A stretch of DNA of 1,013 bases from Naegleria gruberi (GCA_000004985.1 GG739618.1); one strand, 5' to 3'; numbered from the stretch's first letter, positions 1-940 are shown. Notes: generated by a model not told the origin, from the sequence alone. Numbers and translations are program-made.

Positions 1-7
1 GTGAAAA

Positions 8-17
8 CGTAGCTACG
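8..17. repeat. Perfect 10-bp palindrome CGTAGCTACG
   Basis: Self-complementary 10-mer. Position 7 with 18 does not extend it. Confidence 0.5.
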
Positions 18-43
18 CGATACATTCATTGATTATGCAATTA

Positions 44-77
44 CGGAACCGTCTGAATCGCAGCCGTTCGGGAGTTG
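44..77 (+). repeat. R1 family copy A: 34-bp unit CGGAACCGTCTGAATCGCAGCCGTTCGGGAGTTG
   Basis: Matches 342-375 at 33/34 positions (only 49 C vs 347 T). Flanks diverge immediately on both sides (43 vs 341, 78 vs 376), so this is a discrete unit and not part of a long segmental duplication. It is followed directly by GGTACC (78-83). Confidence 0.85.
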
Positions 78-91
78 GGTACCTCAAAAAA

Positions 92-119
92 TTGATATTA
101 TTATATATCATTGTATAGT
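92..119 (+). promoter_or_regulatory. Candidate sigma70-type promoter: -35 TTGATA (92-97), 16-bp spacer, -10 TATAGT (114-119)
   Basis: The two hexamers match consensus at 5/6 and 5/6 with ideal spacing. Such matches are frequent by chance in AT-rich DNA. No downstream gene is evident. Confidence 0.2.
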
Positions 120-136
120 CAAATAACTATTATATC
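112..136 (+). repeat. Direct repeat module TGTATAGTC...ACTATTATATC, copy 1
   Basis: The 9-mer TGTATAGTC (112-120) recurs exactly at 976-984. After a 5-nt divergent block, ACTAT and TATATC-like sequence recur at the same offset (864 bp) with a 2-nt indel. The module overlaps the -10-like hexamer TATAGT (114-119). Confidence 0.5.
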
Positions 137-150
137 AAAAATGGCTAGAA

Positions 151-169
151 CCCAGCCGTTCAAAAGTTG
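151..169 (+). repeat. Degenerate partial R1 copy C (CCCAGCCGTTCAAAAGTTG)
   Basis: Aligns to the R1 3' half CGCAGCCGTTCGGGAGTTG (59-77) at 15/19, with CAGCCGTTC and AGTTG conserved. Its end runs into a perfect TTGACA hexamer (167-172). Confidence 0.4.
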
Positions 170-185
170 ACAATGATTTTTATGA

Positions 186-210
186 ATATATATCTATCTA
201 TTATCTATAT
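186..210. repeat. Imperfect microsatellite (TATC)n: ATATATATCTATCTATTATCTATAT
   Basis: TATCTA occurs at 191-196, 195-200 and 202-207. The tract is a low-complexity tetranucleotide repeat. Confidence 0.6.
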
Positions 211-252
211 AACCTTTTGTAAAGATTTTATTTTATAGAAATTGATTTTTGA

Positions 253-279
253 GCATGTTTCAAAAACCCAAAAACATGC
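253..279. other. Hairpin: 8-bp stem GCATGTTT/AAACATGC with an 11-nt loop CAAAAACCCAA
   Basis: Perfect 8-bp inverted repeat (253-260 / 272-279). There is no U-run immediately 3' on either strand, with TTTTT upstream on + and ACTTCGGG downstream. It is therefore not a canonical intrinsic terminator. Confidence 0.45.
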
Positions 280-341
280 ACTTCGGGTCTCTGACTTCAT
301 GGTTGTCTATTTTCGGAACTGTTGAGAAGTAGTTCGTACAT

Positions 342-375
342 CGGAATCGTCTGAATCGCAGCCGTTCGGGAGTTG
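342..375 (+). repeat. R1 family copy B: CGGAATCGTCTGAATCGCAGCCGTTCGGGAGTTG
   Basis: 33/34 identical to 44-77 at an offset of 298 bp. It contains the internal tandem GAATCG-TCT-GAATCG. Its 5' half forms the left arm of the 348-405 stem-loop. Confidence 0.85.
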
Positions 376-405
376 TCATTTACTTCGTAACTTGCGATTC
401 AGGCG
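348..405 (+). other. Imperfect stem-loop: 14-bp stem (348-361 with 392-405) and a 30-nt loop
   Basis: The stem has 12 Watson-Crick pairs plus two G·U-type positions (350/403 and 361/392) when read as RNA. At the DNA level it is a perfect 10-bp inverted repeat plus 2 flanking pairs. The loop (362-391) contains a small internal 4-bp hairpin, TTAC (380-383) with GTAA (387-390). An A-rich run (406-420) follows on the + strand, so this is not a canonical + strand terminator. Confidence 0.6.
391..405 (-). repeat. Inverted partial R1 copy (reverse complement CGCCTGAATCGCAAG)
   Basis: The reverse complement of 391-405 matches the R1 core CGTCTGAATCGCAGC (348-362) at 13/15. The 10-mer CTGAATCGCA (351-360) is perfectly complementary to TGCGATTCAG (393-402). 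Confidence 0.75.
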
Positions 406-490
406 AAAATAAATATCAAAATATGACACAACAGGGGTATTCATTTTTCACGACTTTTTTAGGGTGACTTATGGACCTGTTGTGTCATAT
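406..490 (-). terminator. Possible terminator-like element for a minus-strand transcript (15-bp stem followed by UUUGAUAUUUAUUUU)
   Basis: On the minus strand the 421-490 hairpin is followed directly by the reverse complement of 406-420, TTTGATATTTATTTT (11 of 15 T). The 40-nt loop is much larger than in canonical intrinsic terminators, so confidence is low. Confidence 0.15.
421..490. repeat. Perfect 15-bp inverted repeat ATATGACACAACAGG (421-435) / CCTGTTGTGTCATAT (476-490) with a 40-bp spacer
   Basis: The arms are exact reverse complements, and they end sharply (420/491 and 436/475 do not pair). The spacer contains the SD-like AGGGTG (461-466) and the ATG (471-473) of ORF1. The right arm encodes ORF1 codons 2-7. 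A perfect 15-bp inverted repeat is very unlikely by chance in 1 kb. Confidence 0.9.
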
Positions 491-692
491 AAACAATTTC
501 GTATTTTTTTTAGGAGGCCTGGAAAAAATTTTGGAACCAAAAAAAAAGAAAAAAAGAAAAATAATTATCGGATTGACTATAAACTCGAGGGGCCCAGGAA
601 CTAGCAATATTTTATTTTCCCGAAATTCGCAAGTAAAATTTTCGATCGAAGGTTTTGCACTAATATTATTTATTTACAATAAACTGGATTAA
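471..692 (+). CDS. Doubtful small ORF (73 aa), probably spurious
   Basis: ATG preceded by a weak SD-like AGGGTG (461-466). The product has a hydrophobic N-terminus (LLCHINNFVFFLGGL) and then KKKKKRK encoded by the A tract. It is low complexity, has no recognisable domain, and overlaps an inverted repeat, palindromes and R2. Confidence 0.12.
   Translation: MDLLCHINNFVFFLGGLEKILEPKKKKKRKIIIGLTINSRGPGTSNILFSRNSQVKFSIEGFALILFIYNKLD
539..561. repeat. Homopurine A tract A9-G-A7-G-A5
   Basis: 21 A plus 2 G over 23 nt. It encodes the KKKKKRK run of ORF1. Such tracts are prone to slippage and are typical of non-coding AT-rich spacers. Confidence 0.7.
641..650. repeat. Perfect 10-bp palindrome TTCGATCGAA (CGATCG core)
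   Basis: Self-complementary 10-mer. It shares the CGATCG core with the HIP1 octamer at 936-943. Confidence 0.5.
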
Positions 693-720
693 GAGAATCC
701 TCTGAATCGAAAGTCGGGGT
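671..720 (+). repeat. R2 degenerate direct repeat, copy 1 (contains AACTGGATTAA and TCTGAATCGAAAGTCGGGG)
   Basis: Aligns to 891-940 at a fixed offset of 220 bp with no gaps: 31/39 over 682-720 vs 902-940, including the perfect 11-mer AACTGGATTAA (682-692 = 902-912), plus 7/11 over 671-681. It shares the TCTGAATCG core with R1. Confidence 0.55.
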
Positions 721-739
721 GAGAGAAAAATTTCGGGGG

Positions 740-749
740 AAAAAAAAAA
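740..749. repeat. A10 homopolymer preceded by G5 (735-739)
   Basis: GGGGGAAAAAAAAAA. It lies inside ORF2, where it encodes a KKK run. Confidence 0.6.
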
Positions 750-762
750 TTTCAAAAGTATG

Positions 763-772
763 GTTGTGTTAT
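763..772. repeat. Degenerate extra copy of the 15-bp inverted-repeat right arm (GTTGTGTTAT vs GTTGTGTCAT at 479-488)
   Basis: 9/10 match. The downstream ...CAATAT echoes ...CATAT. This is weak. Confidence 0.25.
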
Positions 773-780
773 CAATATAA

Positions 781-795
781 CCCGACACTGTCGGG
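781..795. other. 15-bp palindrome CCCGACA-C-TGTCGGG (7-bp arms, 1-nt centre)
   Basis: CCCGACA (781-787) is the exact reverse complement of TGTCGGG (789-795). It is GC-rich within AT-rich flanks. This is the geometry of a dimeric DNA-binding-protein site, or a 6-bp stem with a 3-nt loop if transcribed. Confidence 0.6.
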
Positions 796-820
796 AACTA
801 ATACAGCCCTACTTTTGCTT

Positions 821-856
821 CAATCGCAGTATTTAACTTTTCGGAGGTGGTCATTT
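821..856 (+). repeat. Diverged R1-like copy D
   Basis: AATCGCAG (823-830) followed by TTCGGAGGTGGTCATTT (840-856) parallels R1 copy B, which reads AATCGCAG (354-361) followed by TTCGGGAGTTGTCATTT (365-381). About 9 nt (TATTTAACT) replace CCG between the two halves. Confidence 0.35.
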
Positions 857-890
857 TTTAAATATCCAATTAAATTTGAGTATTCGGTAT

Positions 891-940
891 TAATTGTAAT
901 GAACTGGATTAACAGGATCGTTTAAATCGCAAGTCGCGAT
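891..940 (+). repeat. R2 degenerate direct repeat, copy 2 (AACTGGATTAACAGGATCGTTTAAATCGCAAGTCGCGAT)
   Basis: This is the partner of 671-720 (about 76-79% identity). Its 3' end runs into the HIP1 octamer GCGATCGC (936-943). Confidence 0.55.

Follow-up and report, generated by a model that had tools for sequence, protein, structure and literature searches.

Described elements of ribosomal DNA (rDNA) spacers that are close to the one addressed here include Pol I terminator and replication-fork-barrier boxes of the TTF-I/Reb1 type, namely the mouse Sal box (T0, T1-T10), yeast Reb1/Nsi1, the Reb1 Ter of S. pombe and T3 of Xenopus. Boxes of this type are 10-18 nt in length, often have a T-rich stretch before them, are conserved among relatives and are bound by proteins of the Myb type, TTF-I and Reb1 among them; one copy precedes the promoter, at about 150-250 nt from the transcription start. 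The rDNA minichromosome of Tetrahymena offers another related system in its type I elements, which have origin and promoter functions. In Naegleria, the pathogen N. fowleri included, all rRNA genes are on one circle of about 4,000 copies, the circular extrachromosomal rDNA element (CERE). The CERE and its repeat-laden non-ribosomal spacer (NRS) are described in the Naegleria literature (PMC5805870, PMC7714845, PMC13398248). The announcement of the N. gruberi EGB CERE (MG699123) gives seven families of NRS repeats, 34 to 371 bp in size (PMC5805870), and a 35-bp direct repeat is listed for N. fowleri LEE (MT741533; PMC7714845). These CERE papers present repeats by size alone; motif sequence, conservation and function are absent from them (PMC5805870, PMC7714845). 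The sequences governing CERE replication, rRNA transcription and transcription-replication conflict have been called unknown, which is an obstacle to vectors (PMC13398248, PMC13315211). We found neither a cross-species box nor its strand bias or fixed position relative to the 5'ETS in the accessible Naegleria CERE literature, no printed occurrence of the box sequence in the literature, and no Naegleria transcription start site (TSS) in the searchable literature.

The window, meaning the whole stretch of 1,013 nucleotides that was analysed, is an NRS segment of an N. gruberi-type CERE. It is located upstream of the 18S gene, between about -1.32 and -2.34 kb from the 5' end of 18S, and its minus strand is the rRNA-sense strand. 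Its identity to the contigs L006, L007/8 and L025 is 96.9-99.5%, the highest value being that of the ENA contig L025, which carries an N. gruberi-type spacer ORF; at 90% this ORF clusters with AUH25140.1, 'hypothetical protein [Naegleria gruberi]'. L006 contains eukaryotic SSU/5.8S/LSU rRNA together with a GIR1 ribozyme (twin-ribozyme intron), and one of the window-matching rDNA contigs, of 13,799 nt, overlaps itself and is thus circular. A bacterial, phage or plasmid origin of the window was rejected, with no match among phages, PLSDB plasmids, GTDB genomes and IMG/VR. No known RNA family or tRNA was found within the window, where the top Rfam match (E = 0.29) covers only the hairpin. Coding potential is limited to a longest ORF of 73 aa, and the two longest ORFs are absent from the recorded gene calls. 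The NRS as a whole is rich in duplications, both by our sequence comparison and in the literature (PMC5805870).

On the rRNA-sense strand the box consists of 25 nt, cAACT(CCC/TTT)GAACGGCTG(C/G)G(A/T)TT(C/T)(A/T)AG, with a G+C content of about 60%. In the window it is part of a composite 34-mer, which joins the 25-nt box to the extension GACGRTTCCG. The preliminary description had presented the two 34-mer copies, at 44-77 and 342-375, as near-identical in unrelated flanks, and this is correct: 33 of the 34 positions (97%) agree, the similarity ends exactly at 34 nt, and the flanks (43-50 nt) show 28% identity, equivalent to random sequence. With a further copy at 136-169, named A', the shared length is only 25 nt. 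It had also counted CTGAATCG four times in 1 kb, a count that we confirm (53, 351 and 702 on the plus strand, 395 on the minus strand) against 0.05 expected from dinucleotide shuffles, where 0 of 300 reached four. Allowing up to two mismatches, CTGAATCGCA is present six times against 0.62 expected. The family core, however, had been placed in the wrong half and on the wrong strand, since the deepest conservation belongs to CAGCCGTT (AACGGCTG on the rRNA-sense strand) rather than to CTGAATCG. The box has no detectable secondary structure, as the 34-mer and its flanks fold no better than shuffles (z = +0.42). A derivation of the box from the S516 homing site or from any other part of the rRNA genes, by which the box would be a target of the His-Cys box endonuclease-like ORF of the spacer, was rejected because the 34-mer, aligned locally to the complete 13.8-kb circle, matches the spacer copies only.

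The copy nearest to the gene, the proximal box (44-77, minus strand; sense CAACTCCCGAACGGCTGCGATTCAGACGGTTCCG), precedes the 5' end of 18S by about 1.37-1.40 kb, is the direct-repeat partner of 342-375 and scores 24.1 bits with a matrix built from other species only. The second box, A' (136-169, minus strand; sense AACTTTTGAACGGCTGGGTTCTAGCC), is 92 nt upstream of the proximal box, a spacing that is identical in L001. A' is 65% identical to the 34-mer, is the window's top match to the other-species matrix (28.1 bits) and forms an island of 87.5% identity with the N. andersoni-like L015. The degenerate relative noticed earlier at 151-169 falls within A' and is real, whereas those proposed at 309-326 and 821-856 score 8.2 and 5.5 bits, respectively, no better than noise, the best scores of shuffled sequence being about 8-11 bits. 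In L007/8, a 373-nt tandem duplication causes the copy number of the A'+A unit to differ between strains. The distal box (342-375, minus strand) shares 27-29 nt at 100% identity with the copies in L001 and L002; between L006 and L001/2 the DNA around such a 27-29-nt stretch is about 72% identical. Strain polymorphism is zero in all three boxes.

The distal box has a companion. The inverted partial copy first placed at 391-405 is real and extends over 389-406 on the plus strand (ACTTGCGATTCAGGCGA), pairing with 347-360 as a 14-nt inverted repeat of 93% identity with a 32-nt spacer; as DNA, 340-412 folds at -14.6 kcal/mol (z = -3.5). The same pair, a full box with an inverted core 40 nt off, is found at 5232-5291 of L001, where the entire module has the reverse orientation with respect to the rDNA. 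Beside this module, and listed apart from the box system, is a perfect 15-bp inverted repeat with a 40-nt loop (421-490), whose fold has z = -5.6 (0 of 200 shuffles) and whose two strain differences are both in the loop. The motifs of the preliminary description called R2 (701-719 and 921-939) are real. They belong to a 47-nt repeat, here class B, with one unit at 670-716 and another at 890-936 on the plus strand, 79% identical to each other; with the 34-mer, the motifs have only its left half in common (GAATC.TCTGAATCGCA). The half in common with the box is TGCGATTCAG(A/G)GGATTC, and class B is confined to the N. gruberi complex. Unit 1 carries the left-half motif alone (GAATCCTCTGAATCGAAAGTCG) and has one strain difference; its core is a perfect CTGAATCGCA in the sister lineage L006/L008, and a third copy of the repeat is present at 4155-4202 of L006. 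The core of unit 2 is degenerate in the window (TTAAATCGCA), and with six differences between strains over 50 nt this unit is weakly constrained.

Conservation of the box extends well outside the window. Across the window, L006, L001 and L018, a comparison representing three diverged N. gruberi-complex lineages with diverged flanks, 21 nt of the proximal box (TCCCGAACGGCTGCGATTCAG) are invariant in an alignment with a mean column identity of 65%. An unbiased ranking of 8-mers in the upstream spacers puts AACGGCTG first, with at least two copies in each of six of the seven lineages. Matrices built with one group left out recover the box significantly in L025, L001, L018 and L015 (0 of 200 shuffles each), and also in L012 (3 of 200), N. 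fowleri (2 of 200) and L026 (1 of 200), the last being a distant heterolobosean-like rDNA whose 18S 5' part is only about 67% identical to that of Naegleria. No box was found in the Naegleria-like L019 and L022, in 2.2 and 1.4 kb of upstream spacer, respectively. Eukaryotic metagenome matches of a 20-mer are exclusively rDNA-circle contigs. Matches in L003-L005 (58-62% GC, bacterial-like coding sequence) were set aside, being 20-23 nt inside ORFs of unrelated sequence and consistent with chance at the size of the database. These comparisons show that conservation reaches across Naegleria to a heterolobosean-like rDNA that is far more divergent, and the pattern of substitution indicates that the box is under purifying selection. 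The condition set for refuting the preliminary description, no copies elsewhere and no conservation, therefore does not apply; the unit is retained in related genomes and is not a meaningless local duplication. The suggestion of a recurring protein or RNA recognition module is supported, with a core that is invariant in diverging flanks and is recovered across species by cross-validated matrices.

The box is polar and its location is restricted. Copies occur only in the spacer preceding 18S, where AACGGCTG is sense in 14 cases and antisense in two, and 27 of 33 boxes are in sense orientation. In every lineage with a proximal box, this copy is at -0.9 to -1.6 kb from 18S and 260-520 nt upstream of the jump from AT-rich spacer to GC-rich 5'ETS, while the 400-500 nt directly downstream of it have 23-30% GC. 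The copies of N. fowleri span -1.6 to -6.7 kb, and those of L008 -1.4 to -4.4 kb. Boxes are absent from the roughly 3 kb that follow the 28S 3' end, and the 420 nt after 28S contain none in any lineage. A conserved hairpin with a T-run is present about 190 nt past 28S, and it would be a better candidate for the primary terminator than the box. A run of at least five T precedes 39% of boxes within 30 nt, compared with 18% in the background (p ~0.003); A runs upstream of boxes are equally enriched (42% against 19%), and for this reason a T-rich 'release element' may only mirror a homopolymer-rich context. Oppositely oriented pairs exist at 347-406 of the window, at 5232-5291 of L001, in a cluster of L018 and as a 52-nt palindrome in L026, and the distal copy differs in position and orientation between L006 and L001. 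The 5' ends of contigs were dropped as evidence for the TSS because assemblies break at strain-variable or palindromic DNA.

Taken as a whole, a sequence-specific DNA-binding protein very probably recognises the box and acts on the rDNA circle in cis. As a sub-mechanism we tentatively favour boxes that serve as polar elements of the TTF-I/Reb1 type, that is, as a Pol I terminator and fork barrier. The protein bound to them would halt Pol I reading round the circle before it reaches the promoter, and a T0-like proximal site with an array upstream would make up a terminator arrangement. The same polar sites, or the opposed pairs, might arrest the forks of the theta-replicating plasmid, and such arrest is proposed to avoid a head-on meeting of replication and transcription. 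The box contains AACGG, the core of the Myb recognition element YAACKG. A broader proposal is that one conserved heterolobosean protein on AACGGCTG organises the upstream spacer, marking off an origin or fork-termination zone from the Pol I promoter; this is conceivable, though we would not expect it.

Other explanations share part of this evidence. The box could belong to the Pol I gene promoter itself. The proximal copy would then coincide with the start site or follow it closely, leaving a 5'ETS of about 1.2-1.6 kb, and the upstream copies would be duplicates of the kind known as spacer promoters in Xenopus, Drosophila, mouse and plants. The proximal copy is indeed the best conserved island of the spacer at a near-constant distance to 18S, and it is preceded by very AT-rich DNA and T6-GAGGTACCC (T7-AGGGGGTC in L001), which resembles TTTTTTCACTATAGGGGTACC at the AT-to-GC boundary of L019 and L022. 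In the tandem repeats of N. fowleri a box is 43 nt upstream of the initiator-like ACTTATAGGGGGGG; the sense bias is compatible with a promoter, and the strain-variable A'+A unit also fits. Like the spacer promoters and enhancer repeats of Xenopus, Drosophila, mouse and Arabidopsis, the boxes are upstream repeats of a gene-adjacent sequence, vary in number between strains and mostly match the gene in orientation. However, known spacer promoters share longer stretches, and a promoter-length segment common to the upstream copies and the gene copy is absent here; the unit in common is only 25-34 nt (25 nt with A') in random flanks. Pol I promoters normally diverge quickly, yet the box persists far past the species level, to about 67% identity in the 18S 5' part. 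The TATAGGGGGGG copy closest to the gene in N. fowleri is without an upstream box, the box of L012 is downstream of the TATAGGGGGGG motif (+39 to +57), and L019 and L022 have none. Some copies are inverted, including the distal copy in L001 and the inverted pairs in L018 and L026, and similarity between L006 and L001 is not detectable in the 300 nt after the proximal box. A promoter role is thus possible but doubtful.

It is unlikely that the boxes are elements of plasmid replication comparable to the Tetrahymena type I elements, with an initiator or origin-associated factor binding them in or next to the single CERE origin. The N. gruberi CERE has a single origin within the NRS, as cited in later articles (PMC11008152, PMC13315211, PMC12845041). 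The element is repeated and plasmid-borne, the stretch of low GC is immediately downstream of the proximal box, and hairpin-forming inverted repeats flank boxes. Against this, the copies extend over 3-5 kb, yet the origin is reported to be within a fragment of 2.1 kb or even 636 bp, both fragments being those of Mullican et al. 2019. There is no 11/11 match to the yeast ARS consensus in or near the window, and eukaryotic ORC is rarely sequence-specific. The Tetrahymena elements are likewise short, conserved and repeated in the upstream spacer (5' NTS) of an extrachromosomal, high-copy rDNA replicon, but they are A/T-rich and act via single-strand binding factors and ORC, while the Naegleria box is G+C-rich. 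A role at the RNA level, for instance as a processing or snoRNA-docking site present several times in the transcribed spacer of a long 5'ETS, is very improbable. The strong sense bias would be compatible with it, and repeated motifs occur within the ETS of other extrachromosomal rDNAs such as that of Didymium (PMC13182076). Nevertheless, not all copies can be in the 5'ETS, because those of N. fowleri at -6.7 kb are too distant; antisense copies exist, the box shows no intrinsic structure (z = +0.4), and it is in AT-rich DNA upstream of the GC-rich body of the ETS. The dispersed or mobile, SDR/MITE-like family of the preliminary description, or a neutral residue of local duplications without function, is largely refuted and only barely credible. 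Like MITEs and short dispersed repeats, the box is short and multi-copy, with several copies in 1 kb and two nearly identical in unrelated flanks; its distal copy differs in place and direction between L006 and L001, and the NRS is rich in duplications (PMC5805870). Unlike them, it is without terminal inverted repeats (fold z = +0.4), and neither target-site duplications nor flanking direct repeats accompany the 34-mer copies. The copies keep their places relative to the 18S gene, orthologous copies are invariant while their flanks diverged, conservation across species and genera survives cross-validation, and the box is confined to the rDNA spacer, the eukaryotic metagenome matches being rDNA-circle contigs only and the three others being high-GC, bacterial-like coding matches of 20-23 nt.

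Returning to the preferred reading of a protein-binding site, the box offers a concrete candidate for a control element of the CERE, being invariant, polar and fixed in position relative to the 5'ETS, and present in N. gruberi, an N. andersoni-like lineage, N. fowleri and a distant relative. If a conserved protein does act on AACGGCTG, this would be the first defined CERE cis-element and a handle for stable episomal vectors in N. gruberi and N. fowleri. In general terms no new principle is involved: regulatory boxes repeated in rDNA spacers are a known theme, of which this would be a further case. Compared with the catalogued NRS repeats of Naegleria CEREs (EGB MG699123, NEG-M AB298288, LEE MT741533), the box belongs to the same molecule and the same region, and the 34-mer pair and the 373-nt duplication of L007/8 fit both ends of the EGB range of repeat sizes. 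Compared with the TTF-I/Reb1-type boxes, it has no sequence likeness beyond the 7-nt GACTTGC in the class B units of the sister lineage, which is at chance level; and in mouse, frog and yeast the primary terminators are downstream of the 28S 3' end, whereas the first Naegleria copy is at least 3 kb away from it. The two are nonetheless alike in being short, polar, repeated in the spacer and conserved among relatives, and the Naegleria box resembles this type in its sense-biased array and its AACGG core, and perhaps in its upstream T runs.

The window is AT-rich, its longest open reading frame spans 73 aa, and a search of it turned up neither a tRNA nor a credible Rfam match. Its two 34-nt copies (44-77 and 342-375), which the preliminary description called near-identical with unrelated flanks, are 97% identical, and their flanks agree at 28%, the random level. 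The relative suspected at 151-169 belongs to a real third copy, 136-169, with 65% identity. The reported fourfold occurrence of CTGAATCG (plus strand 3, minus strand 1) compares with 0.05 expected per dinucleotide-preserving shuffle (0 of 300), and the 10-mer CTGAATCGCA, with up to 2 mismatches, occurs 6 times against 0.62 expected. The partial inverted copy at 391-405 is also genuine, forming a 14-nt inverted repeat with 347-360. The further relatives proposed at 309-326 and 821-856 have matrix scores at noise level and are dropped, the rest of the observation being upheld. Trained on non-gruberi lineages only, a matrix gives exactly three strong matches in the window, at minus-strand positions 143-168, 51-76 and 349-374.

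The 34-mer is a composite of two halves. Its right half, read on the window plus strand (GCCGTTCGGGAGTTG), joins with CTGAATCGCA to form a box whose rRNA-sense sequence is cAACT(CCC/TTT)GAACGGCTG(C/G)G(A/T)TT(C/T)(A/T)AG. The inverted half-copy and the R2 motifs share the left half of the 34-mer (GGAAYCGTCTGAATCGCA); the kinship claimed for the R2 motifs holds for this half, and they lie inside a larger 47-nt repeat (class B, 670-716 and 890-936, 79% identical). The box showed no structure of its own in a fold test, and comparison of the 34-mer ruled out that it derives from the S516 homing site or from any segment of the rRNA genes.

Nothing matching the window turned up in collections of phages, plasmids, prokaryotic genomes and viruses; a 20-mer taken from the repeat, scanned against metagenomes, hit six contigs. 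Three of these are high-GC, bacterial-like coding sequence with 20-23 nt in common, consistent with chance at the database size. The whole window is found at 96.9% identity in L006 (14.4 kb, 40% GC), a contig with 18S, 5.8S and 28S rRNA genes of eukaryotic type and with a GIR1 branching ribozyme, by which the twin-ribozyme intron in Naegleria 18S genes is recognised. Both L006 ORFs are His-Cys box homing-endonuclease-like, and further rDNA elements were reached through their relatives. L007/L008 form a 13.8-kb self-overlapping circle without the intron, 97.8% identical to the window; L025 is 99.5% identical, and its spacer ORF shares a 90% cluster with AUH25140.1, “hypothetical protein [Naegleria gruberi]”. 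The nearest relatives of the L006 intron endonuclease come from N. italica, N. philippinensis, N. gruberi and N. andersoni. The window belongs to the non-ribosomal spacer of an N. gruberi-type rDNA circle, where it runs from about -1.32 to -2.34 kb, counted from the 18S 5' end, with its plus strand antisense to the rRNA.

These circles also differ among themselves. L006 has the twin-ribozyme intron (GIR1 and endonuclease gene), whereas L007/L008 and L025, with spacers 97-99% identical, lack it: circles that are almost the same are polymorphic for the intron. In the spacer downstream of 28S, the rRNA strand holds a free-standing His-Cys box homing-endonuclease-like ORF (L006 6341-7408, minus strand; L025 9977-11011; 344-355 aa; PF05551, E = 1e-26), and its L006 type is 81% identical to the N. 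gruberi EGB type despite 97-98% identity in the upstream spacer. In the L007/L008 strain (13181-13926), the unit holding the 44-77 and 136-169 boxes (window 1-264 and a further 108 nt or so) forms a tandem duplication of 373-nt period, which the window, L006 and L025 lack. The EGB announcement lists seven repeat families of 34 bp to 371 bp in the non-ribosomal sequence (NRS), without sequences or functions (PMC5805870). Our 34-mer and the 373-nt duplication agree in size with its two ends, the latter matching the largest, “371 bp”.

The box is under selection and widespread among lineages. The 34 columns that vary among four strains all lie outside the three boxes, the inverted half-copy and a 36-mer island, and six of them lie in one class B unit. 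In orthologous copies of the proximal box (window, L006, L001, L018), 21 nt are invariant against a mean column identity of 65%; between L006 and L001/L002, 27-29 nt are 100% identical and the alignable flanks only about 72%. In an unbiased ranking over the upstream spacers of seven lineages, AACGGCTG is the top of all shared 8-mers; six of the seven have it in two copies or more, 14 of these copies being sense and 2 antisense. No copy of the 7-mer AACGGCT lies outside the upstream spacer, and most are in sense orientation, in L008, L015 (whose endonuclease is N. andersoni-type), L018 and L012, and likewise in N. fowleri TY (Supplementary Data S1 of PMC13398248). Matrices built without the tested lineage group and judged against 200 shuffles regain the box in L025, L001, L018 and L015 (0/200 each), in L012 (3/200), N. 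fowleri (2/200) and L026 (1/200), and not in the upstream spacer at hand of L019/L022. L026 is heterolobosean-like and much more distant, the first 640 nt of its 18S being about 67% identical to Naegleria. Its two boxes sit about -1.1 kb from 18S (43-179), at the inner ends of a 52-nt inverted repeat (83%), with a 33-nt AT-rich spacer between.

The placement of the box is also regular. In every lineage, GC content jumps from 23-38% to 60-73% between -500 and -1100, and the GC-rich stretch that follows is taken to be the 5'ETS body. Wherever found, the 18S-proximal box lies 260-520 nt upstream of this jump, with very AT-rich DNA between. The 92-nt spacing of the 136-169 and 44-77 boxes is the same in L006 and L001, and the distal box (342-375) forms with the inverted half-copy a conserved module, which in L001 is flipped and at another place. 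At the AT-to-GC boundary itself, TCGACCCCCC(C)AAAT is kept in four lineages (L025 about -870, L001 about -720, L018 about -760, L015 about -960 from 18S), another candidate for the start-site region or first processing site. ACTTATAGGGGG(GG), which resembles a plant Pol I initiator, recurs on the sense strand of N. fowleri TY (-1272, -1639, -1837, -2033), L012 (-937, -1525, -2200), L019 (-585) and L022 (-535), and N. gruberi-type spacers lack it; L019 and L022 have TATAGGGGTACC exactly at the jump.

Other structures also stand out. A perfect 15-bp inverted repeat at 421-490 (ATATGACACAACAGG / CCTGTTGTGTCATAT, loop 40 nt, DNA fold z = -5.6) has its sole two strain differences in the loop, and a second hairpin spans 753-817 (z = -4.7); either may form a cruciform or a pause structure next to the distal module. 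At 497-532, a conserved 36-mer (TTTCGTATTTTTTTTAGGAGGCCTGGAAAAAATTTT), without variation among strains, stands out by its 91.7% identity to L001/L002 from spacer that cannot otherwise be aligned. Past the 28S 3' end, at a distance of about 190 nt, L006 (about 7800-7830, minus strand), L001 (about 560-590), L008, L025 and L018 share a conserved hairpin, CCAAG(Y)TGATCA(R)CTTGG, whose stem is preserved through base changes; a T7-8 run comes after it, and the whole may serve as the primary Pol I terminator or as a site of 3'ETS processing.

Since the box is short, invariant, polar and repeated over several kb of spacer, with one copy fixed before the transcribed region and conservation beyond the genus, it is probably bound by a DNA-binding protein that recognises its sequence and acts in cis on the rDNA circle. 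Of the “protein or RNA recognition module” suggested earlier, the protein part is favoured; an RNA-level ETS element is highly unlikely. Equally remote is a mobile or neutral repeat. The suggested MITE-like family lacks terminal inverted repeats, target duplications and shared flanks, and is opposed also by orthologous positions and by the eukaryotic metagenome matches, all of them on rDNA circles; neutral duplication is opposed by box invariance and cross-lineage recovery.

For the function of such a site, we tentatively favour a polar, TTF-I/Reb1-like Pol I terminator or replication-fork barrier. A circle with one gene has a single spacer, at once “downstream” and “upstream”, so read-through polymerases would need stopping ahead of the promoter, and in a theta-replicating plasmid forks would have to be kept from head-on encounter with Pol I. 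The sense bias, the T runs upstream of boxes, the oppositely oriented pairs, which could trap forks, and AACGG, presumably a Myb-type core, count in its favour. Against it, the first 3 kb or so after 28S hold no box, and there the hairpin and T run resemble a primary terminator; A runs upstream of boxes are as enriched as T runs; and L019/L022 lack the box in the spacer at hand. The main rival, in which the gene promoter includes the proximal copy and the other copies act as spacer promoters, is somewhat less likely. It draws on the conserved proximal copy, the AT-rich DNA upstream of it with T6-GAGGTACCC, and N. fowleri repeats with the box 43 nt upstream of ACTTATAGGGGGGG; yet the unit in common is short, some copies are inverted, and in L012 the order of box and TATAGGGG is inconsistent. 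The deep conservation, reaching across genera, better fits a conserved factor than a fast-evolving promoter. That the box is an origin element seems improbable.

The NRS of the circular extrachromosomal rDNA element (CERE) of Naegleria is described as “repeat-laden”, its regulatory sequences unknown (PMC5805870, PMC7714845, PMC11008152, PMC13398248, PMC13315211). The N. gruberi repeats as such are already catalogued, by size only, and the box is not printed in the searchable CERE literature, which leaves out the Protist 2019 and Plasmid 2021 papers. It overturns nothing established and its importance is moderate, offering a concrete, testable candidate cis-element for a replicon that several groups want as a vector for a lethal pathogen. 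By analogy, it would be one more of the regulatory boxes that are repeated in rDNA spacers; its logic resembles that of Sal boxes, Reb1 sites, spacer promoters and Tetrahymena type I elements, to none of which it is related in sequence.
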